Origin: Vicinamibacterales bacterium
Lineage (GTDB): Bacteria; Acidobacteriota; Vicinamibacteria; Vicinamibacterales; UBA8438
DNA: 64,000 nucleotides
Direction of reading: 5' to 3'
NCBI GenBank assembly: GCA_965215105.1
Contig: OZ244051.1
Coordinates: 5,073,003 to 5,137,002 of the forward strand
Each line of letters opens with the position of its first letter. Position 1 is the stretch's first letter. A model generated the notes under the pieces. That model made no database searches. It was not told the DNA's origin and worked only from the letters and a program-made list of their open reading frames with translations. Both the position numbers and the translations under genes were made by a program. Below are positions 43,121 through 52,046 of this stretch, piece after piece.

Positions 43121-43365
43121 GCGCGTCCAGTCGGGCGCTCATGCTAGCACGCCCCGCGTCACCCGGTTCGGAAACGGGGACAGGCGGCTTCCGTCCCGGC
43201 CAGGGCTGCGGAAGCTGTCCCGCTTCCGTCCCTCGAGCGGCACGTACGTCGACGGCGAGAGGCCGGCGGCATCGGGTGAGGAAAGCTCGCCGCGTTGTCC
43301 GAACCGTCTTCGATGATGATTGATAGCGGTAGGCCGGTTCGGATAACATCCGGGTTCCGACCATC

Positions 43366-43992
43366 TTGAGCCGGAGGCGCGACGCAGTGGATCGGACGAC
43401 GCAGCCTGCTCGGACCTTCCTCCCGACGATCGAGGATGCCGTTGCCTGTCCGCTGCTGGAGGGCCGGCACGAAGCCTGGATCCGGTGCTGCACGGCGCGG
43501 TTCCTGCCTCTCGCCCGCCGCCTTACCGGCAACGATGCGGACGCGCACGATGCGCTGCAGGAGAGCTGGATCGATGTCCTGCACGGCGTACAGCAGTATC
43601 GCGGGGACGCGCCGGCCTGCGCGTGGGTCGGCGCGATAGTGCGGAACGAAGCGCGGCGGCAGGCCCGACATCCCCGGAACGTCCCCATCGGCGACGACGG
43701 CGGCGACGAGCTGGCGCCGGGGCCCGCCACGCCGCCCGCAGTCGGTCCGACTCCGGAAGTCGAAGAACACACACGCCAGATGCTCCGCATCCTGCTGGAG
43801 ATCGTCGACCGGCTGCCGCCGACGTACCGGCAGATAGTCCAGCTTCGCGACATCGAGGAACGGTCGCCCGACGAGGTGGCCGCCCGCCTGCACATCTCCC
43901 GCTCGAACGTCTCGTCGCGCCTGCAGCGGGCGCACGAGCTGCTCCGCCGCAGCCTGCTGCAGCGACTCGGCATGGAGGGGCCGGCCCGGTAG
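43366..43992 (+). CDS. ECF (group 4) RNA polymerase sigma factor
   Basis: Region 2 'DAHDALQESW...WVGAIVRNE' and region 4 'LPPTYRQIVQLRDIEERSPDEVAARLHISRSNVSSRLQRA'. Start uncertain (TTG 43366 or GTG 43387). Confidence 0.85.
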   Translation: MSRRRDAVDRTTQPARTFLPTIEDAVACPLLEGRHEAWIRCCTARFLPLARRLTGNDADAHDALQESWIDVLHGVQQYRGDAPACAWVGAIVRNEARRQARHPRNVPIGDDGGDELAPGPATPPAVGPTPEVEEHTRQMLRILLEIVDRLPPTYRQIVQLRDIEERSPDEVAARLHISRSNVSSRLQRAHELLRRSLLQRLGMEGPAR

Positions 43993-44066
43993 CCGACCCT
44001 GCACGTCCGACGGTCCGGCGCGAGCCTTCGGCCCGCGGCGTCCGGTGACCCGAATCCGGCGACTCC

Positions 44067-44130
44067 AAAAAAAAAAGTCGAAAAAAAACGGAAAAAGGAT
44101 GTGACCGATCCGCCCCTCGGACACTCTATA
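44067..44130 (+). promoter_or_regulatory. A-tract UP-like element and putative ECF promoter upstream of the peptide gene
   Basis: A10 (44067-76), A8 (44081-88) and A5 (44092-96), then GTGACC (44101-06) and ACTCTATA (44123-30). Confidence 0.5.
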
Positions 44131-44267
44131 CAAGTACAGGGCGAGGATCCTGTCGAGGCCGCGGGATAGGGCGGCGAGGCGCTGTTCGCGCGTGCGAGAG
44201 AACGTAGGCAAAACCAGGACCGTGGAGCGTTACGGCCGAATTCGGACCTGATTCAAAGGAGGATGTG

Positions 44268-44528
44268 ATGAAGCCACTTCTGATACGCGTCGTGATCTTG
44301 CTCATCTTGCTCGGCGGCTACGGGTCGCTGCAACCGGCGGAGGTTCAGGGAGAGTGGGGCATCACCTGCTACACCTGCGACGTTACTTGGGACGGTTGGG
44401 CTCGGTGCATGGACACCTATACCCTCCGTGAAGGATGGGACTACTGTGTGGCCGTGACCCAAGATCCGAGTGACCCGCAGCAGAGCTTTTGCCTGCTGGG
44501 CTGGTACTGCCCTTGGACGCAGGTCTGA
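44268..44528 (+). CDS. Small secreted Cys/Trp-rich peptide (86 aa; predicted 58-aa mature part with 6 Cys and 6 Trp)
   Basis: Perfect AAGGAGG SD at 44256-62, a Sec-type signal MKPLLIRVVILLILLGGYGSLQPAEVQG, and mature EWGITCYTCDVTWDGWARCMDTYTLREGWDYCVAVTQDPSDPQQSFCLLGWYCPWTQV. Confidence 0.85.
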   Translation: MKPLLIRVVILLILLGGYGSLQPAEVQGEWGITCYTCDVTWDGWARCMDTYTLREGWDYCVAVTQDPSDPQQSFCLLGWYCPWTQV

Positions 44529-44556
44529 CCAACCTGAAATAAACGGGTGATCACCA

Positions 44557-44589
44557 TCTGCCGGGCCGGCGGGAGTCGGCCCCGGCAGA
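44557..44589 (+). terminator. GC-rich stem-loop after the peptide gene (partial terminator or mRNA stabiliser)
   Basis: tctgccgg-gccggc-ggga-gtcggc-c-ccggcaga; no U-tract follows. Confidence 0.55.
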
Positions 44590-44656
44590 CTGTCCCGAAC
44601 TCGCGGGCTTGCAGCGGGGGGCCTTAGCATCTGGCGTCTGTGGGACGAGGAACATC

Positions 44657-45532
44657 ATGACCAAACGAAAGATAATCGTTCGCTCGCTTGACGTCAGCAT
44701 ACTCATCGTGGTTACGGCGGTTCTACTCGCTTGGACAACCGATGAGTGGAAGTCGAAGGAAAGCGCGGCGATGCGGGCGGTTTCCACGGAGTTGCCGGGC
44801 GGAACAGTTCGCCCGGAGTTGATCCGCCGTGGTGCTCGGGTCGTGTTGCCGAACGTTCAATGGCATGACGGCGTTCGGACCATTGTGTTGCTCGCAAGTG
44901 CGACGTGCCCTGCCTGCAATGACGGCATTGCTTTCTACAAGCATTTGGGGGATTATGTCCGAGATCTACCGGAAATGCGCTTCGTGATTGCCGCGGTGGA
45001 TGACATGGAGACAGTGAAGACCTGGGCGGATACGCACGGCGTTCGACATGACGTCGTCGTCGAGATGAGAGACGCGATTTCACACGGATTCACGCTCACT
45101 CCCACGCTGCTGGTGATGGACGATGACGGAGTGGTGACAGACGTCCTTCTGGGTCGCCTGTCGAAGTTTGAGGAATCGATGCTATGGGGCCGTTTGCGGC
45201 GGCCGCGTTCTGTCGCGCCGTTGAGCAACGCGCGCTATCCTGAGGAGATTGGCGGCGCGGAATTCCGAGACCTGGTGTCGAGGAACCGCGAGCGCCTTGT
45301 CGTCATAGATGTGCGCAGTCGCTCCGAGTATCGGCCAAGGCGGATCGGCCAAGGCGCGATCAACATTCCCCTTGACGAACTCGCGATTCGGGGGCCGGTC
45401 GAGTTGCTCGGGCGGTCGATCCCCGATACGGTCGTAGTGGACTGCACCGTGATACATTGGGCGCAGTGTCGCCGAGCGGGACGGATCCTGGAACACATTG
45501 GCGTCGAGAATCCGTCGTTGCTCCTGCCATGA
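44657..45532 (+). CDS. Membrane-anchored thioredoxin-like (CPAC) / rhodanese fusion protein
   Basis: N-terminal TM, 'TIVLLASATCPAC', cis-Pro 'TPTLLV'; rhodanese 'VIDVRSRSEY', 'GAINIPLDEL', 'VVVDCTVIHWAQC'. Confidence 0.8.
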   Translation: MTKRKIIVRSLDVSILIVVTAVLLAWTTDEWKSKESAAMRAVSTELPGGTVRPELIRRGARVVLPNVQWHDGVRTIVLLASATCPACNDGIAFYKHLGDYVRDLPEMRFVIAAVDDMETVKTWADTHGVRHDVVVEMRDAISHGFTLTPTLLVMDDDGVVTDVLLGRLSKFEESMLWGRLRRPRSVAPLSNARYPEEIGGAEFRDLVSRNRERLVVIDVRSRSEYRPRRIGQGAINIPLDELAIRGPVELLGRSIPDTVVVDCTVIHWAQCRRAGRILEHIGVENPSLLLP

Positions 45533-45544
45533 GGTGAGGCGGAG

Positions 45545-47986
45545 ATGGATATTGGCGGAGGCGGGTTGCATCACAGGCGGTCCGTCGGGCGCCGCATGCG
45601 ATCACTGCTTGCAGACGTGCCGTTCGCGCTGCGGCGATTCTGGCGGCGCGGGTCCTTTCCCGGCGTGTTGGTGGCGCTGGGGCTGGGCGTCGGGGCGAAC
45701 GGCGCGACGCTGACGCTGGCCGCGGCGCTGCTGGTGACGGCTCCCGACTACGTTCAGGATCCGCAACGACTCGTGGTGGTGCCGTCGATTAGGTCGTACG
45801 CTGAGTACAAGAGCGTCAGCCGCCGTGCGAAGACAATAGACCTCGCCGCCGTCACGCGGGTCGATCTGAGTCTTGGCGTCGGCCGGGATGCGGACAGGGT
45901 CAGCGTCGAGTGCGTGACGTGGCGGTACTTCGATCTTTTTCCGGTACGTCCGATGTTGGGCCGCGGGTTCGAGAAGTCGGACGAGATTCGGCACGCTGCG
46001 TTGCCGGTCGTGCTGTCTCACGGTTCCTGGGTCCGTCGTTTCGGTGCTGACCCGGAGGCGGTTGGGCGTACCGTCATCCTAGGTGATCGCGGTCACGTCG
46101 TTGTCGGAGTCGCGCCGCGAGGGTTCAAGGGGATCGAGTCGGCCGCGACGGACGCCTGGATTCTTCTCGCGGTTTCGTCGCCCCTGTGCTCGTTCACGGG
46201 AGCGGACCTGCTCGAGGCCGCGGACGCCGCTTGGCTGCGGACGGTTGGACGGGTTCGCGACGGCTTCCCCATCAATGCCGCGGCGGGGGAATTGGCGTTA
46301 CTGGGGTCGGGTACGCGGGGTGACGGGGGAACGTCTGGTGCAGGAGGGAGCGGCCGCAGCCTGGTGGCGGCCTACGGTTCCTGGCGCAGTCGGGTGCTCA
46401 GTGGCGCGGTGGCGCTCTGGCTTGCAGGGGCGGGCGGTCTGATTCTGCTTGGAGCTTGGCTGAACGTGGCGGTCCTACTGTCGATCCAGGCGCTCGACCG
46501 TGCCCACGAGTTCGCTGTGCGGGCGCAGCTCGGGGCGACGCGGCCGCGGATTTTCTTCCAGTTCATGCTGGAGCAGATTGCCGCAACGGGTACGTGCGCC
46601 GTGGCGGCGGCGGGCGTCGGCATCGCAGTCGGGCGACTGGTGGTCGGGCTGCTGCCGGTCGGCAATATGGACGGGTTCATGCAAGCCGGGTTCTTCCGGC
46701 TCGTCGGTGCGCTGACGCTTTTGGCGGGCGTGTCGAGCGGATTGGGGCCAGCGGTCTGGGTCTCGCGCATGGCGGCGATATCGCGTCCGCATGGCGGCGG
46801 GCTCGCGGAGCCGTCGGGAGCGGGACTTCGTAGCGGACTCGTGACCGCGCAGTTCGCGCTGGCGCTGGTGCTCGTGGTAGGGACCGGTCTCTTCGTCGGC
46901 ACGGTAAGGCACCTTGGCCGGACGCCGGGCATCGACGCAGACCGCGTCGTCGTCGCGACCGTCGATCTGGCCAGGGTCGGCTACGACGCCGAGCAGGTCC
47001 GGGATGTCTTCGAGACGTTTCTCCGGCGCCTTGATCGGGTGCCCCAGGTCGCTTCCACCGGCGTCAGCTTGGCGCCGCTCCTCGGATCCGGCGCTTTGAC
47101 CCGCGCGTTTCCGCTGCGAACCGCGCGTGGCGTCGCCCCGGCGAGGGTTCCGTTGTTCAATGCGGTGTCGCAGGACTACTTCCATACCGTCGGCACCAGG
47201 ATCCTGCGCGGCCGCGCGTTCGTGGACGGCGATACCGGCGGGCCGCCGGTGATGGTGATGAACGCCGGCCTCGCGGAGCAGTTGTGGGGCGTGTCGGACG
47301 CACTTGGCCGGTGCGTCGTCGTCGGTGGAATGTCGTGCGTCGAGATAGTCGGCATCAGCGAGGATCGACGGCACGTGTCTGTGACCGGGGTGCACGACGA
47401 GTTGTTCGTTCCATTGAACCAGGCGTCGCTGTACATCGACGGCGCGGCGCCCCGGACACTGGTGGTGCGTGCCCGCGGTGCCGGGCGCGCGGCCGTCGGC
47501 CCGGTCGCCACGGCGCTGCGCGGCTCCGATGCGGATCTGCCGTTCATAGATGTCCGGTTGCTGGCGGATCTTGTCGACGATCAGACGCGATCGTGGCGAC
47601 TTGGGGCCACCGTCTTCAGCCTGCTGGGCAGCTTCGCCCTCCTGCTCGCCGCCATCGGGAGCTTCGCCGCTCTATCCTTGTCGGTGCGTTCGCGCACCCG
47701 GGAGCTCGGCGTTCGGATGGCGCTCGGCGCGCGTCGCCGCGACATTTTCGCGGCAGTGATGCGCCGCGGGATGGGGGTCGTGATCGCGGGACTCGTCATT
47801 GGTGTCGCCGTCTCCGCCGCGACCTATCGTCTGATGGACAGTCTGCTCGTCGGCGTCACGGCGGCCGATCCCGCGTCCTTCGGAATCGCTTGTCTGGTGG
47901 TCTTCGGCGGGGGTGTGGCCGCTACGGTGGCGCCGGCGGTCAGAGCGGCGCGCCTGGATGCTGCAGGAGTGTGTACCGATGTCTGA
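45545..47986 (+). CDS. MacB/FtsX-like duplicated ABC permease (ADOP-like), no adjacent ATPase
   Basis: 'LGLGVGANGA', 'EFAVRAQLGA', 'LVTAQFALALVLVVGTGLF', 'RTRELGVRMALGA', 'PAVRAARLD'. Start 45545 or 45596. Confidence 0.88.
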   Translation: MDIGGGGLHHRRSVGRRMRSLLADVPFALRRFWRRGSFPGVLVALGLGVGANGATLTLAAALLVTAPDYVQDPQRLVVVPSIRSYAEYKSVSRRAKTIDLAAVTRVDLSLGVGRDADRVSVECVTWRYFDLFPVRPMLGRGFEKSDEIRHAALPVVLSHGSWVRRFGADPEAVGRTVILGDRGHVVVGVAPRGFKGIESAATDAWILLAVSSPLCSFTGADLLEAADAAWLRTVGRVRDGFPINAAAGELALLGSGTRGDGGTSGAGGSGRSLVAAYGSWRSRVLSGAVALWLAGAGGLILLGAWLNVAVLLSIQALDRAHEFAVRAQLGATRPRIFFQFMLEQIAATGTCAVAAAGVGIAVGRLVVGLLPVGNMDGFMQAGFFRLVGALTLLAGVSSGLGPAVWVSRMAAISRPHGGGLAEPSGAGLRSGLVTAQFALALVLVVGTGLFVGTVRHLGRTPGIDADRVVVATVDLARVGYDAEQVRDVFETFLRRLDRVPQVASTGVSLAPLLGSGALTRAFPLRTARGVAPARVPLFNAVSQDYFHTVGTRILRGRAFVDGDTGGPPVMVMNAGLAEQLWGVSDALGRCVVVGGMSCVEIVGISEDRRHVSVTGVHDELFVPLNQASLYIDGAAPRTLVVRARGAGRAAVGPVATALRGSDADLPFIDVRLLADLVDDQTRSWRLGATVFSLLGSFALLLAAIGSFAALSLSVRSRTRELGVRMALGARRRDIFAAVMRRGMGVVIAGLVIGVAVSAATYRLMDSLLVGVTAADPASFGIACLVVFGGGVAATVAPAVRAARLDAAGVCTDV

Positions 47987-48719
47987 ACGGATGGGCTTTG
48001 GAGGCCTGCTGGTCGTGCTACTGAGCGGCGCATGTGACCGGGCTGCGATCAGCCCGGGTGAGAACTCGCTTCCGGTGGACACCACCCATCAGGCTGCGAT
48101 CGAGAGTCTCGCCGCCCGGAAACCGTTTCCAGGCTACCCTGCCCGGTCTCTGGAGAACGGCGCCGCGGGTGTCGCCGTGGCTTCGATCCTGATCGGTTCC
48201 GACGGTCGGATGGAACGGGTCGAAGTACTCGAGGCGCCGGATGCGGACATCGCCGAAGCCGTGCGGAACGCCCTCGGGCGTTGGGTGTTGCCGCAGCGCC
48301 TCTTCGAGGGCAACCCTCGCGGCCCGTTCAAGGTCGCGTCCACGATGGTGTTCTATTTTCTCATCGAGGCCGGGGAAGGTCGCGTCGTGAGCGGGCCGAT
48401 TCTGGCGGCGGAACGCGTCGCCGACCACTCCGCGGCTGGTGAGCTCCGCCGCATCGACGAAGCGGAGTTCAAGGCGTTGCTGGAGACGGGTGACGTAGTC
48501 GTCGTCGATCCGCGCGAACGCGAGCTCTATGCGCGCGGTCACCGGGAGGGCGCGATCAACGTCCCGGTCGAGGAACTGGACTCGCGGGCGGCCGTGGAGC
48601 TTTCGGCGGCCCGGGTCGTCGTCGTCGACTGCTACCGCAGTTCGGGATCGATGTGCGATGTGGCGGGGCGGATACTGCGGCTCGTCGGGTCGGACGTCGC
48701 GGTCTTCGTTCACGACTGA
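47979..48719 (+). CDS. Probable lipoprotein: TonB C-terminal domain fused to rhodanese
   Basis: AGGAG RBS, 'LLSGAC' lipobox-like; TonB-C 'PGYPARSLENGAAGVAVASILIGSDGRMERVEVL...AVRNALGRW'; rhodanese 'VVDPRERELYARGHREGAINVP', 'VVDCYRSSGSMC'. Confidence 0.8.
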   Translation: MSERMGFGGLLVVLLSGACDRAAISPGENSLPVDTTHQAAIESLAARKPFPGYPARSLENGAAGVAVASILIGSDGRMERVEVLEAPDADIAEAVRNALGRWVLPQRLFEGNPRGPFKVASTMVFYFLIEAGEGRVVSGPILAAERVADHSAAGELRRIDEAEFKALLETGDVVVVDPRERELYARGHREGAINVPVEELDSRAAVELSAARVVVVDCYRSSGSMCDVAGRILRLVGSDVAVFVHD

Positions 48720-48953
48720 GCGGTCGACGGACGTGGCCGGGCGAGCGGCGGCGCCGCCCGACCTGCTCCGCGTCGCCGCACCACCAGGACGCGCAGGGCG
48801 CGTTGCCCCCCCGGCGGACTGGCAGGATTCCCGCTTCCCGGTCTGGCGTCACGTGCCCCGGCTGGGCGCGGGCGGCCATGGGAATCGCGGGATGCAGCCG
48901 GTTGATGCAGGCGGGGTCGGTGCGGCGCGGGGCTTCTCCTTCGGCGCGCCGGG

Positions 48954-51782
48954 TCAGGCTCGGGCGCCTTGCAGCCCGCCGGCGTCCCCGCCGGTCTCGG
49001 TGCGGCGCGGGGTCTCGCCGCCGGCCTGCGTGGTTCGGGGCGCCGGTGGCGCCGCGGTATCGACGGGCGGCGCCGCCCGTGCGCCGAGCGGCGCTGCCGC
49101 CCGCGCGGGCGGCGCCGGGGCCGGGACGGAGCCGGTTTCCTGCGCGGGCGCGCCCGGCTGCCGGCCCTCGTCCGCCGTCGGCGCGTCCGGCAGCGGCAGC
49201 AGGTCCAGCGTGGCCGCGGTGTCCGCGACGGCGGCGTCGACGGCCGCGACGGCGCGCGCCGACTGCCGCAGGGTGCGCGCGGCCCAGGCCGCCAGCAGCC
49301 CGGCGGCGCCGGCGATCCACGGCCAGTACGGGGCCGGGCCGGCGGCGGCGCCGGCGATCGCTCCCCCGGCGAGGCACGCGCCCAGGAGCCACAGCTTGGG
49401 GGTGGGCCGCAGCCGCCGGGCGACGCGGACGAGGCAGCGTCCCCCGCGATGCTCCTCGACGAGCACCCGCAGGTGCAGCCGCGCCCACCGGTTCAGGCCG
49501 ACGCTGATGTCGCGGTCCGCCTGCCAGCCGTCGTCTATCTCGACCGCCCGCACCCCGCGCGTCCGCTCGAGCCGGGCCGTCAGGTGACTGAGCAGCGCTT
49601 CTCCCGCGATCCAGGTCTCGCTCCAGTAGCGCCGGGGCGGGGTGCGGCGCGACGCGCCGGCCCACAGGTCCCGCACCGCGCCGGCCGGCGCCGCCGGGGC
49701 GCGTCGTCCGTTCGCCGGAGCGCGAACGACCTCGGGCGGGGACATCGCGCCTCGCAGTCGGCCCCACGCCCGGGCGAGGGGCTGGACGAAGTACAGCGAC
49801 GCGATGCGCGACCGGTAGAGGATGCGGCTCAGGCGGCGCGGGCGGCGGACCAGCGGCGGCAGGCGCTCGATGTCGGTGACGAGCGCGTAGCGGACGCAGC
49901 GGGCGACGGTGGTGCCGAGGGCGCCCGCGCCCACCGCCAGCAGCGCGAGGGCCAACCCGATCTGGTTCGTCGCCAGGGTCGCCCCGCCGAGCCCGATCAG
50001 GGCGGCGGCGGCGACCTGCCAGCGGGCCGAGTGAGGCATGAAGGCGAACGGATAGGTGTCGATGGTGTAGACCGACGGGAACGGCGCGGCGCCCCACGTG
50101 CCGCTGTTGACGCGGGCCCGGGTCAGCGAGCGGTGGAAGGGCAGGGGGCCGTAGATGCGCCCGCGCCAGCCGATGTGCAGCCCCTGGAACTGGTCGGGGT
50201 GGTGCGGCTTGAGCCACGACTCGCCCTCGCCGTAGCCGACCTGCTGGCGCCAGTAGGCGCGCAGCGACGCGCGGTGGCGGTGCCAGACGAGGGCGGACGG
50301 CGCGAACCCGACCTTCCAGCCGCGCGCCTGGAGGCGCCAGCAGATGTCGACGTCGTCGCCGGCGCGCAGGTAGATGGGGTTGAACCCGCCGACGGCGAGC
50401 AGGGCGTCGCGGCGGAACGCCATGTTGCAGCCGGGCACGTGCTCGGCGACGCGGTCGTCGAGCATGACCTGGGTGGGGCTGCCGGGCGCGCGCGCGATGC
50501 ACTGGGCCATCGGGGGGTCGTCGGCGGGGACGAGGTTGGGGCCGCCCGCGCCGACGACGTCCGAGGTCAGGAACGGCCGGACGAGGTGCGTGAGCCAGTC
50601 GGGGTCGACGCGCACGTCGCCGTCGGTATAGGCGACGATCTCGCCGGCGGCGTGCTCGAGCCCGACGTTGCGGGCCGCGCTCAGCCCGCCGTTGGGGATG
50701 TCGAGCACGGTGGCCGACGCGTGGCGGCGGGCGATGGCGCCGGTGTCGTCGCGCGACCCGTCGTTGACGACGATGATCTCGAAGTGGGGATAGCTCAGGT
50801 TCTCGATGGACGTGAGGCACTCGTCGATGGTGGCGGCCTCGTTGTAGGCGCACACCACGACCGAGATCTTCGGCCACGTCCGCCGCTCCGCCTCGGGGAA
50901 CGGCGCGTCCTCGAAAGCGCGAACGACCGCGCCGAGGGCCGGCTTGGGCCTGCGCGCCGTGTCCACGAGGCCGAACGCCCAGTCGTCGACCCGCCGCCCG
51001 CCCCGCCACCACTCGTCGGTCCACGCGAACACCACGGCCCCGCACGCCCCCTCGGAGAACGCGGTTCGGACGTGCATGGCGGCGATGGCGGCCTGGCCGT
51101 CCTCGCCCTCGCGCCGGCTGTCGGCCCCCGCCTCGGCGAGGAGCAGCGGGCGGTGTCCCGCCAGGTGCTGCAGCCGGGCGAGGTAGCGCCGCAGGTCCGC
51201 TTCCTCGTGCAGGTAGACGTTGAACGCGCAGACGTCGAGGAAGGGCAGCGACAGGTACTCGGTCGGCGGATAGTTCACGTAGGTCAGGAGGGCGTGGGGC
51301 GCCGCCGCCTTCACGTCGTGGTAGAGCTCGCGCAGGAAGCGCTCGACGCGGGCCTGCCCGTGCCAGCGGACGACGGGGGCGGGAATCTCGTTGCCGAGCG
51401 CGAAGACGAGGGCGGCGGGGTGGTCGGACAGCTCGCGCACTCGCGCGATGACGTCGCCGCGGACGCGGCGGCAGAGGTCGGGGTCGTCGAGGAACGCGAC
51501 GTGCTGCGGCCAGGGCAGGCCGATCATCATGCGCAGCCCGTGACGCGCGGCTTCGTCGAGCACCCGGGGAGGGGGCACGGTGTAGGTGCGGACGGTATTG
51601 AGGCCCGCTTCCCGCATCCGCGCGAAGTCCGCCGAGACAACGTCGGCCGCGGGAAACTGGTCGCCCGCCGCGTCGGGTGCGAAGGTGCCGTAAGAGACGC
51701 CCTTCACGAGAAACCGATCGCGCCCCAGCGACAGGAACTTGCCGTCGACGGCGGCTCGCGTCTCGGGGACCGGGGTAGTCAT
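48954..51782 (-). CDS. Fusion of a clan GH-A-like TIM barrel and a GT2 glycosyltransferase with C-terminal TMs
   Basis: 'KGVSYGTF', 'NTVRTY', 'GNEIP', 'LAEAG'; GT2 'SVVVCAYNE', 'VNDGSRD', 'YTDGD', 'GDDVD', 'QQVGYG'. Start set at the most downstream repeated Met; the frame is open to 52037. Confidence 0.88.
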   Translation of the reverse strand: MTTPVPETRAAVDGKFLSLGRDRFLVKGVSYGTFAPDAAGDQFPAADVVSADFARMREAGLNTVRTYTVPPPRVLDEAARHGLRMMIGLPWPQHVAFLDDPDLCRRVRGDVIARVRELSDHPAALVFALGNEIPAPVVRWHGQARVERFLRELYHDVKAAAPHALLTYVNYPPTEYLSLPFLDVCAFNVYLHEEADLRRYLARLQHLAGHRPLLLAEAGADSRREGEDGQAAIAAMHVRTAFSEGACGAVVFAWTDEWWRGGRRVDDWAFGLVDTARRPKPALGAVVRAFEDAPFPEAERRTWPKISVVVCAYNEAATIDECLTSIENLSYPHFEIIVVNDGSRDDTGAIARRHASATVLDIPNGGLSAARNVGLEHAAGEIVAYTDGDVRVDPDWLTHLVRPFLTSDVVGAGGPNLVPADDPPMAQCIARAPGSPTQVMLDDRVAEHVPGCNMAFRRDALLAVGGFNPIYLRAGDDVDICWRLQARGWKVGFAPSALVWHRHRASLRAYWRQQVGYGEGESWLKPHHPDQFQGLHIGWRGRIYGPLPFHRSLTRARVNSGTWGAAPFPSVYTIDTYPFAFMPHSARWQVAAAALIGLGGATLATNQIGLALALLAVGAGALGTTVARCVRYALVTDIERLPPLVRRPRRLSRILYRSRIASLYFVQPLARAWGRLRGAMSPPEVVRAPANGRRAPAAPAGAVRDLWAGASRRTPPRRYWSETWIAGEALLSHLTARLERTRGVRAVEIDDGWQADRDISVGLNRWARLHLRVLVEEHRGGRCLVRVARRLRPTPKLWLLGACLAGGAIAGAAAGPAPYWPWIAGAAGLLAAWAARTLRQSARAVAAVDAAVADTAATLDLLPLPDAPTADEGRQPGAPAQETGSVPAPAPPARAAAPLGARAAPPVDTAAPPAPRTTQAGGETPRRTETGGDAGGLQGARA

Positions 51783-51965
51783 TGGGGAGAATACGGACGT
51801 GGCGCCGGTCCCCTCGCGCCCGAGCGACAGGGACCTGCCGTCGACGGCGGCTCGCGTCCCGGGGACCGCGGTAGTCATCAAGGGCAGTACGGGCGTGGCG
51901 CCGGTCCCTTCGTGCCCGAGCGACAGGAACTCGCCGTCGACGGCGGCTCGCGTCGTGGGGACCGC
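51721..51965 (-). repeat. 96-bp tandem repeat (~2.5 copies) duplicating the 5' end of the GH-GT2 gene
   Basis: 'TRAAVDG(E/R/K)(F/S)LSLG' occurs three times; Met codons at 51878 and 51782 are 96 bp apart. Confidence 0.88.
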
Positions 51966-52046
51966 GTCGTCCTTGCGGACGACGCGGGGGCGCCGGGTCC
52001 CCGCCGGCCGGGGCGCGCCGGCGCCCCGCGGCGTCACGCGCGTCCT

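Follow-up and report, generated by a model that had tools for sequence, protein, structure and literature searches.

We describe here a gene for a small cysteine-rich peptide that lies next to the gene of a membrane-anchored thioredoxin-rhodanese fusion protein (hereafter TrxRhd) in a Vicinamibacterales bacterium. The stretch of DNA analysed (the window) comprises 64,000 nt of contig OZ244051.1, positions 5,073,003-5,137,002 of the forward strand, and coordinates given without a genome or contig name are those of the window. The peptide open reading frame (ORF) at 44268-44528 is a real gene and, together with the TrxRhd gene, it constitutes a rare, apparently undescribed gene cassette. In the open-access papers and preprints searched, we found no description of the peptide family, of the thioredoxin-rhodanese fusion or of a link between such peptides and permeases of the ADOP family, one of which is encoded downstream. 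The product is very probably a genuine exported cysteine (Cys)-rich peptide, and it is likely to be a functional partner of TrxRhd. As a whole, we lean slightly towards a Sec-exported disulfide mini-protein that is folded by its own oxidoreductase and has an extracellular function, either as a signal or as a bacteriocin-like antagonist, and the antagonistic or signalling role itself is put forward only tentatively.

The peptide gene and its product

The gene and its parts are as follows.

44257-44262 (+): ribosome-binding site AGGAGG, 5 nt ahead of the ATG at 44268
44268-44528 (+): peptide ORF, 86 codons and TGA
44268-44351 (+): signal-like leader of 28 codons, with a short basic N-end, a 12-residue hydrophobic core and the conserved LQPAEV(E/Q)G
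44352-44528 (+): predicted mature peptide of 58 aa and stop codon; acidic, Trp-rich, six Cys

We regard the ORF as a real gene because the ribosome-binding site, the reading frame and the GC content by codon position all support it. The last amounts to 0.56/0.48/0.76 in the peptide frame, which is the order expected of a real gene, and to 0.75/0.53/0.56 in an overlapping antisense ORF. The exact peptide is already present among predicted proteins (P0001, on 3 contigs), and the identical gene with its surrounding DNA occurs on contigs of two runs (X5 and X6) from another study, in which the locus is unchanged apart from the length of one A-run. Runs X7 and X9 span only parts of the upstream sigma factor gene plus other short stretches, and no RNA run is listed for the locus.

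In the leader, K2 and R7 precede a hydrophobic core (V8-G19) that is too short for a membrane anchor, and V-Q-G stands ahead of E29. In a cleavable Sec signal, one looks for a basic N-end, 7-15 residues in the hydrophobic core and small residues at -3 and -1. By the -3/-1 rule, cleavage is predicted after V-x-G (..AEVQG/EWG.., the slash marking the cut). A signal-like N-terminus, as expected from the initial annotation of this DNA, is present, and the position of its cleavage is a prediction. Cleavage after residue 28 would place the Cys at mature positions 6, 9, 19, 32, 47 and 53, with the spacing C-x2-C-x9-C-x12-C-x14-C-x5-C, and the GW pairs at positions 15, 28 and 50 (DGW, EGW and LGW). 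The mature part contains six Trp, four Tyr, no His and a single CxxC, and its net charge is -6 because eight acidic residues are balanced by only two basic ones. The Cys pattern, the six Trp, the three GW motifs and the acidic charge had all been given in the initial annotation and are borne out here. It had also listed three Tyr, one too few, and had warned that gene callers could miss the gene, which they do not, since the exact protein is in the predicted-protein collection.

A rare family with invariant cysteines

The peptide matched no family in Pfam (E up to 0.01) or NCBIfam. An exhaustive phmmer search of 1.84 billion representative proteins returned six proteins at E up to 1e-3, of which three are true relatives of 82-86 residues, namely P0002, P0003 and P0004 (E = 5.7e-29, 3.0e-18 and 3.5e-12; 68, 54 and 46% identity). 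The other three are long repetitive proteins that align over short stretches and are not relatives. In the four-sequence alignment, in which the identity is 44-67%, the six Cys are invariant (4/4), as are G43, A45, G56-W57, G78, W83 and the leader motif P-A-E-V-x-G. Homologues that keep the Cys spacing, on which the initial annotation had staked its reading, thus exist. The leader, especially LQPAEV(E/Q)G, is better conserved than the first part of the core.

Further searches were empty. All matches of a single-protein search in 100 related genomes had E > 0.05 and are noise, and JGI metagenome contigs held no homologue of the peptide. Profile A2, run over 103 genomes of the family, gave two matches at E ~1e-3, both in other frames of larger genes, and the contigs of GTDB species genomes gave one 15-residue match to the leader only, which was discarded. 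The family is therefore real but very rare, with only three homologues found.

Genes for Cys-rich peptides recur beside TrxRhd genes

Three genes follow the peptide gene on the same strand.

44657-45532 (+): TrxRhd, membrane-anchored fusion of a thioredoxin fold and a rhodanese-like domain, 291 residues; Pfam Redoxin 20.8 bits and Rhodanese 19.4 bits, both below cut-off
45545-47986 (+): ADOP-family duplicated FtsX/MacB-type permease; Pfam MacB_PCD and FtsX, NCBIfam TIGR03434 487.7 bits, below the cut-off of 622.3
47979-48719 (+): TonB_C plus rhodanese-like protein (TonB_C-Rhd), also with C-x7-C; Pfam TonB_C 29.2 and Rhodanese 28.6 bits, both over cut-off; its start, for which we chose the ATG at 47979, overlaps the ADOP stop

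TrxRhd begins with a basic N-end, followed by a single hydrophobic helix. Its thioredoxin fold contains TCPAC and, as the cis-Pro loop, TPT, and it also has the rhodanese-like domain. The TrxRhd proteins P0017-P0025 are 58-67% identical to it. In five of five aligned orthologues, which align at 28-31% identity, C84-x2-C87, P149-T150 and C263-x7-C271-R272 are invariant. The fusion was found in 15 of 401 genomes of the class (E up to 1e-8) and also beyond the class within the phylum, and it is usually followed by an ADOP and a TonB_C(-rhodanese) gene. We examined 11 loci of other genomes (designated G) that match both domains of the fusion. Seven of them carry, beside the TrxRhd or the TonB_C-Rhd gene, a same-strand ORF that encodes a signal peptide and a Cys-rich remainder.

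G401: six Cys
G332: six Cys, C-x2-C-x7-C-x12-C-x8-C-x5-C, with GFWDC
G491 (another class, 52% GC): six Cys, C-x2-C-x9-C-x10-C-x9-C-x5-C, with GWSTC
G330: eight Cys
G433: eight Cys, located after TonB_C-Rhd
G085: two tandem peptides of eight Cys each, ahead of the TonB_C-Rhd gene
G142: four Cys, a frameshifted version of the intact six-Cys proteins P0009 and P0011

P0010 and P0012, which are closely related to the G332 and G433 peptides, keep every Cys. What the peptide subfamilies have in common is a Cys framework, C-x2-C ... C ... C ... C-x5-7-C, often with G-(W/F/H)-x-x-C, together with the acidic charge, the signal and the neighbouring gene; seven other cassette peptides also have a small-x-small motif 2-7 residues ahead of the first Cys. 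We propose to recognise the cassette by a signal-like start, an acidic core of at least six Cys that begins with CxxC and ends with C-x5-7-C, and a position on the same strand beside a gene for a transmembrane-thioredoxin (CxxC)-rhodanese (C-x7-C-R) protein. All of these features are found at the present locus, and peptides of this kind likewise occur in seven other genomes.

At the G031 locus (L042 5560-6842, +), two overlapping IS3-type transposase-like ORFs were seen by eye directly upstream of TrxRhd, at the place expected of the peptide gene. The G134 contig ends 242 nt upstream of TrxRhd, and no peptide ORF was found within 1.5 kb at the G666 locus. A partial match to positions 7-179 with internal stop codons (G795:C12, L053) was left out of the scan for peptide ORFs.

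The association was also examined with a fixed definition of the ORFs sought, namely a length of 50-120 aa, a signal-like start, one CxxC and six or more Cys beyond residue 25. Over the whole 6.9-Mb genome, 22 ORFs were retrieved; in 21 of them the mature part has a net charge of +2 to +21, a basic character that off-frame ORFs are expected to show where the GC content is high, and only the ORF at 44268-44528 has an acidic one. The same scan of 146 kb of TrxRhd loci from other genomes retrieved 10 ORFs where 0.5 would be expected at the rate of the genome, and all 10 are acidic, in line with the charge of the peptide described here. In G332, two of these 10 are separated from TrxRhd by 4-5 kb and do not adjoin it. 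As a control, 10 further loci that match the thioredoxin part only (nine of them loci of thioredoxin-only paralogues) gave no convincing peptide ORF; the control matches in L055 and L056 lack a proper signal start.

Some additional observations concern these loci. In G085, the product of the gene upstream of TrxRhd (L046 12088-12741, -) is 217 residues long, with a hydrophobic helix at its N-terminus and, at its C-terminus, a tail that has 13 Cys in ~60 residues. This gene adjoins a divergently transcribed gene for an extracytoplasmic function (ECF) sigma factor. In G332, two further signal-peptide ORFs with 8 and 12 Cys (L049 11173-11439, -, and 1877-2143, -) lie some kilobases from the TrxRhd cassette, near a Cupin_8 gene and a condensation-domain gene. 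Finally, a thioredoxin-only paralogue of the N-terminal half of TrxRhd is encoded outside the window at G000:C1:3324338-3324826 (-), with no Cys-rich peptide ORF within 1.5 kb.

Peptide and thioredoxin fold are lost together

Three genomes (G011, G136 and G141) lack the peptide gene along with the thioredoxin part of TrxRhd and keep a C-terminal rhodanese piece, the ADOP permease (74-77% identity) and TonB_C-Rhd; G011 also lacks the sigma factor gene. Damage in G142 likewise affects the peptide and the thioredoxin part. Loss of the peptide thus goes with loss of the thioredoxin fold, and the permease survives both. The island that bears the cassette is dispensable and has been lost repeatedly.

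The accessory island and the sigma factor gene

The cassette lies in an island preceded by a sigma factor gene.

43154-48853 (no strand assigned): accessory island with the cassette, boundaries approximate, from homology breaks and GC content
43366-43992 (+): ECF-type sigma-70 factor, Pfam Sigma70_r2 and Sigma70_r4_2, NCBIfam TIGR02937 75.1 bits (cut-off 42.9); start codon uncertain

In the 21 other genomes of the genus, homology of the left flank, which carries a Na+/H+ antiporter gene, stops at about 43153, and the right part of the island is found only in G011. In G021, G004 and G015, the antiporter gene is followed by an intact acetamidase-like ORF, and 56-65 nt from the 5' end of this acetamidase/formamidase-like gene are kept at 48854-48918, where they mark the right edge of the island. 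So the ~5.7 kb have replaced most of the acetamidase-like gene. No tRNA was found at the island edge. The GC content is 58-61% at 44000-45400 (peptide and TrxRhd genes) versus 70-77% in the flanks, and GC at third codon positions (GC3) is 0.70-0.86 in the island genes versus 0.96-0.97 in their core neighbours. Among the island genes, Pfam and NCBIfam revealed no metal gene; copper or zinc binding had been the alternative to a disulfide mini-protein in the initial annotation.

No recognisable anti-sigma gene stands beside the sigma factor gene, here or in G142. The N-terminal stretch of the sigma factor (encoded at 43366-43560) is shared with its G142 relative and contains conserved Cys (..WIRCCTARFLPLARR..). 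Because of this stretch and because no anti-sigma gene is adjacent, direct redox control of the sigma factor is a possibility. Outside the island, a large family-2 glycosyltransferase is encoded at 48954-52037 (-), for which the best NCBIfam match is MftF (mycofactocin glycosyltransferase; 176 bits, cut-off 280), and it is probably unrelated to the cassette.

Predicted structure and comparison with known peptide classes

The AlphaFold2 models of the precursor and of the mature part reached pLDDT values of 61 and 50, respectively, and are too weak for a fold or a disulfide map; both low-confidence models show a beta-hairpin across the CxxC...C region, followed by a short helix. A VIA-align comparison with 48,161 chains returned nothing above Z 2.9, the best score in the ESM Atlas was 0.80 with recognition below the mark, and the predicted complex of the peptide with TrxRhd residues 45-291 scored 0.02. 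The best match of a PDB profile search was the fibronectin type II domain 1ks0 at E = 1, which is chance level. As a lead only, the likeness is that of a small aromatic-rich disulfide domain with a DG..WC-like stretch, although fibronectin type II domains have four Cys with another spacing and no structural match to the peptide was obtained. The compact three-disulfide mini-protein suggested initially has indirect support: six Cys are invariant, an extracytoplasmic thioredoxin-fold protein with CxxC is encoded directly downstream and the pairing recurs with other six- and eight-Cys peptides, whereas the AlphaFold models have low confidence.

We compared the peptide with several known classes. 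The cis-defensins (with the CS-alpha-beta fold, for example xanthusin-1) are bacterial six-Cys peptides with signal peptides, some with acidic N-terminal tails and one from Acidobacteria, according to the excerpted account in PMC11561630. The peptide resembles them in its signal-like leader and its six Cys. However, its spacing contains neither CxxxC nor CxC, and it is not a cis-defensin because the defining CxxxC ... GxC ... CxC pattern is absent. In the cis-defensin fold, an alpha-helix is stapled to a beta-sheet by disulfides; the models of the peptide, with a beta-hairpin and then a short helix, are of too low confidence for a comparison. No defensin appeared among the matches of the PDB profile search or of the comparison with the 48,161 chains.

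A bacteriocin with a double-glycine leader does not fit either. Such a leader is non-hydrophobic and ends in a conserved GG/GA cleavage motif. The peptide does have GG at residues 16-17, but within its hydrophobic core, and GT in P0003 and GI in P0004 take its place. The neighbours match only Sigma70, Redoxin/Rhodanese, MacB_PCD/FtsX and TonB_C/Rhodanese, with no ABC exporter carrying a C39 peptidase. A lipoprotein was discarded, as the first Cys is residue 34, 15 residues past the core, and there is no lipobox. Zinc-binding anti-sigma (ZAS) proteins have a cytoplasmic N-terminal domain with HxxxCxxC. Here no His precedes the CxxC and only ~7 residues would lie on the cytoplasmic side, so that the peptide is not a ZAS protein. 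As to a ribosomally synthesised and post-translationally modified peptide that depends on a maturase, no maturase gene (radical SAM, YcaO, LanM/LanBC or ATP-grasp) was found among the five island genes or in five other cassettes, and this class is rejected too.

A proposed mechanism and its alternatives

In the mechanism that we propose, the leader would act as a Sec-type signal peptide that carries the precursor across the inner membrane, with a cut near VQG/E (..AEVQG/E). The 58-residue product would then receive three disulfides in the periplasm, made or shuffled by TrxRhd, a role suggested by the linkage of the two genes, their joint loss and the invariant redox motifs of the enzyme. Its C-x7-C-R pair would probably re-oxidise the CxxC or relay to it. 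The variable half, the peptide, and the constant half, the enzyme, would thus travel in a small mobile cassette (peptide-TrxRhd-ADOP-TonB_C-rhodanese), which the adjacent ECF sigma factor may switch on at this locus. The MacB-type permease could serve export, self-protection or both. In the last and weakest step, the folded peptide would leave the cell, to work either as a signal or as an antagonist of the bacteriocin kind. An extracellular role is suggested by the extreme divergence of the peptides as opposed to their conserved machine, by the mobility and repeated loss of the island, by the survival of the permease alone, as is seen with orphan immunity genes, and by the precedent of STII (see below) for the exit of a periplasmically oxidised peptide through a MacB-type machine. 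A bolder version, which we consider rather doubtful, would see in the peptides the hypervariable 'warheads' of a bacteriocin or signal system of Gram-negative bacteria that has so far gone unrecognised. In that case, they would form a Sec-exported superfamily of acidic six- and eight-Cys peptides, so different in each lineage that their sequences no longer reveal it, served by one conserved folding machine (the thioredoxin-rhodanese C-x7-C-R relay plus the TonB_C-linked rhodanese) and handled by ADOP, and relatives that keep only ADOP and TonB_C-Rhd would be immunity-only 'cheaters'.

Several points weigh against this proposal. The peptide is anionic, unlike most pore-forming bacteriocins, and its structure models are unreliable. 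Among the island genes, Pfam and NCBIfam revealed no ATPase, adaptor, outer-membrane duct, peptidase, maturase or obvious immunity gene. ADOP permeases have many paralogues in these genomes (many partial matches), and the permease and TonB_C-Rhd may serve another purpose since they are kept without the peptide. The genome encodes a VKOR-type disulfide generator (DsbB was not found in it), so that a private oxidase is not strictly needed, and the thioredoxin fold could equally be that of a reductase or an isomerase. Finally, the peptide 'superfamily' rests on pattern and context: hhalign of A2 with the G332 peptide gave a probability of 3%, and homology between subfamilies is not demonstrable.

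The same parts could also belong to a thiol or sulfur relay, in which the peptide would be a periplasmic Cys-rich carrier or buffer for sulfane sulfur, a metal(loid) or an oxidant, working with the rhodanese-like and thioredoxin domains, while the permease disposes of the product. The cassette has two rhodanese-like domains, each with a conserved Cys pair, all of its parts are extracytoplasmic judging by their N-termini, and control by an ECF factor would fit an envelope-stress response. Rhodaneses, moreover, normally move sulfane sulfur (PMC2593051, PMC10215317 and PMC10925157, as excerpted). However, if the peptide were a carrier that binds to conserved enzymes, one would expect it to be conserved as well, whereas the peptides cannot be linked by sequence search and the enzymes align at 28-31%; the cassette is also dispensable and repeatedly lost. 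In addition, the loop of TrxRhd, C-x7-C-R and mostly hydrophobic, does not look like the usual six-residue loop of sulfurtransferases. We judge a relay to be unlikely.

Since a sigma factor gene without a recognisable anti-sigma gene lies directly upstream here and in G142, and an ECF sigma factor gene is also adjacent in G085, the CxxC peptide might be a ligand or sensor for the sigma factor, that is, a redox- or metal-sensitive extracytoplasmic module replacing the missing anti-sigma factor. We hold this to be improbable. With only ~7 residues ahead of its hydrophobic core, the peptide has no domain in the cytoplasm that could bind a sigma factor. It also lacks the HxxxCxxC motif of zinc anti-sigma factors, and most cassettes have no sigma gene next to them (a Crp-family gene in G401, none in G332 and G330). 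Its richness in Trp and Cys and a leader better conserved than the first part of the core would suit a precursor whose final product is modified more heavily, for example by Cys-Trp or thioether cross-links, and whose leader is the recognition sequence of a maturase. Such a product appears slightly less probable again, given that the leader resembles an ordinary Sec signal and that no radical-SAM, YcaO, lanthipeptide, ATP-grasp, P450 or peptidase gene occurs in the island or in the other cassettes examined. That the ORF is a chance reading frame in a foreign low-GC stretch and not a functional gene could explain why it has no family match and no confident fold, but it is hardly credible in view of the strong ribosome-binding site, the coding-type GC3, the homologues that keep six Cys at 44-67% identity and the recurrent gene context.

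Relation to known systems

Two known systems come closest to the mechanism that we propose. In the operon of sublancin, a glycocin-type bacteriocin of Bacillus subtilis (sunA-sunT-bdbA-sunS-bdbB), dedicated thiol-disulfide oxidoreductases are needed for the disulfides of the peptide, a hairpin separates sunA from sunT and ECF sigma factors take part in regulation, as stated in the relevant part of PMC4336743. As in that operon, a small gene for a Cys-containing precursor comes first at our locus and is followed by a hairpin and then by transporter and oxidoreductase machinery. Sublancin, however, has an S-glycosyltransferase, a separate immunity gene and a leader of the double-glycine type that is cut by a peptidase-ABC exporter. 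Our precursor starts with a Sec-like signal, and its island encodes neither a peptidase domain nor a glycosyltransferase; what it does encode is a thioredoxin-rhodanese fusion and an ADOP permease that lacks an ATPase. No sequence similarity was found between the two systems. The second is the heat-stable enterotoxin STII of Escherichia coli. According to the excerpt of PMC5985334, this small peptide has a cleaved Sec signal, is given its disulfides while in the periplasm and leaves through a machine of the MacB type (FtsX fold). Its route through Sec, DsbA and MacAB-TolC could serve as a model for export here. STII relies, however, on the housekeeping DsbA and on a complete MacA-MacB-TolC assembly with its ATPase, whereas our island encodes a private oxidoreductase and no ATPase, adaptor or duct, and STII has no sequence relation to the cassette peptide. 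By analogy, the cassette may thus work most like bacteriocin operons with dedicated oxidoreductases combined with the STII route, and it is set apart from both by its Sec leader, the thioredoxin-rhodanese fusion, the TonB_C-rhodanese partner and the orphan permease.

For TrxRhd, a functional precedent may be offered by PspE, a periplasmic rhodanese that together with DsbC can replace DsbA/DsbB (PMC5403849, in the part that cites Chng et al. 2012). In both cases, a Cys protein of the rhodanese fold goes with a thioredoxin-fold partner. PspE differs in that it has a single Cys and is a separate protein, whereas TrxRhd is fused and membrane-anchored, with an invariant C-x7-C-R.

If the proposed mechanism is correct, the cassette defines a new and easily recognised class of secreted disulfide-rich peptides in Acidobacteriota, a phylum in which secreted small proteins are almost unstudied. 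It would also supply a mining rule: anchoring on the conserved TrxRhd and reading the adjacent small ORF would yield peptides that sequence searches miss. The fusion would be a self-contained periplasmic disulfide module, a natural design corresponding to the artificial PspE/DsbC rescue. Moreover, one ADOP member would gain a possible substrate and, in the bolder version above, the huge orphan ADOP family a first functional handle; the family name came up in only two of the open-access papers and preprints searched, neither of which deals with its function. The peptides are small enough to be synthesised and folded, which makes the question directly testable.

Upstream element and downstream hairpin

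The spacer between the sigma factor and peptide genes is 275 nt long and contains two A-runs and a conserved element; a hairpin follows the peptide gene.

44067-44088 (+): A-rich tract with runs of 10 and 8 A, upstream of the conserved element
44100-44132 (+): conserved non-coding element, TGTGACCGATC-N6-TCGGACACTCTATACA, with 29 of 33 bases identical upstream of the G142 peptide gene
44557-44589 (+): GC-rich stem-loop of ~13 pairs without a U-tract, 28 nt past the stop codon

Read from the sequence, the element is an imperfect palindrome, GTGaCCGA-N8-TCGGaCAC, that ends in TCTATACA. The form common to this locus and G142 is TGTGACCGATC-N6-TCG(G/A)(A/G)CACTCTATA, and the G142 copy lies at L050 6978 (-). 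The sigma factor of G142 is encoded at the same position and is 60.7% identical, yet the peptides of the two loci cannot be aligned. We take the element to be a candidate promoter or operator of the peptide gene and the A-rich tract to be a putative UP-element; an A-run also stands ahead of the element in G142. One further copy of the element, elsewhere in the genome at G000:C1:1965839 and outside the window, precedes a 24-codon ORF with a strong AAGGAGG ribosome-binding site in a stretch that looks low in GC and possibly mobile. In the X5 and X6 contigs, the 10-A run (44067-44076) is 2 nt shorter, and the length of this homopolymer thus varies between otherwise identical copies.

Searches for known signals gave little. 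The ECF-type motif GGAAC-N-CGT was not found upstream of the peptide gene, the sole match being a loose GAAAC..CGTC upstream of the sigma factor gene, and a sigma-70 scan gave one promoter-like site ahead of the sigma factor gene (43320-43349) and none ahead of the peptide gene. In Rfam, the region 43900-44700 had only a sub-threshold match to 'drum' (23.4 bits, gathering score 43).

As for the stem-loop, the folding energy of its best 50 nt is -30 to -32 kcal/mol, a value also reached by 7.5% of segments drawn at random from the window. A strong hairpin follows the peptide gene at five of the seven loci tested, with 0-7.5% of random segments folding as well; the weaker loci are those of G330 (16%) and of the first G085 peptide (46%).

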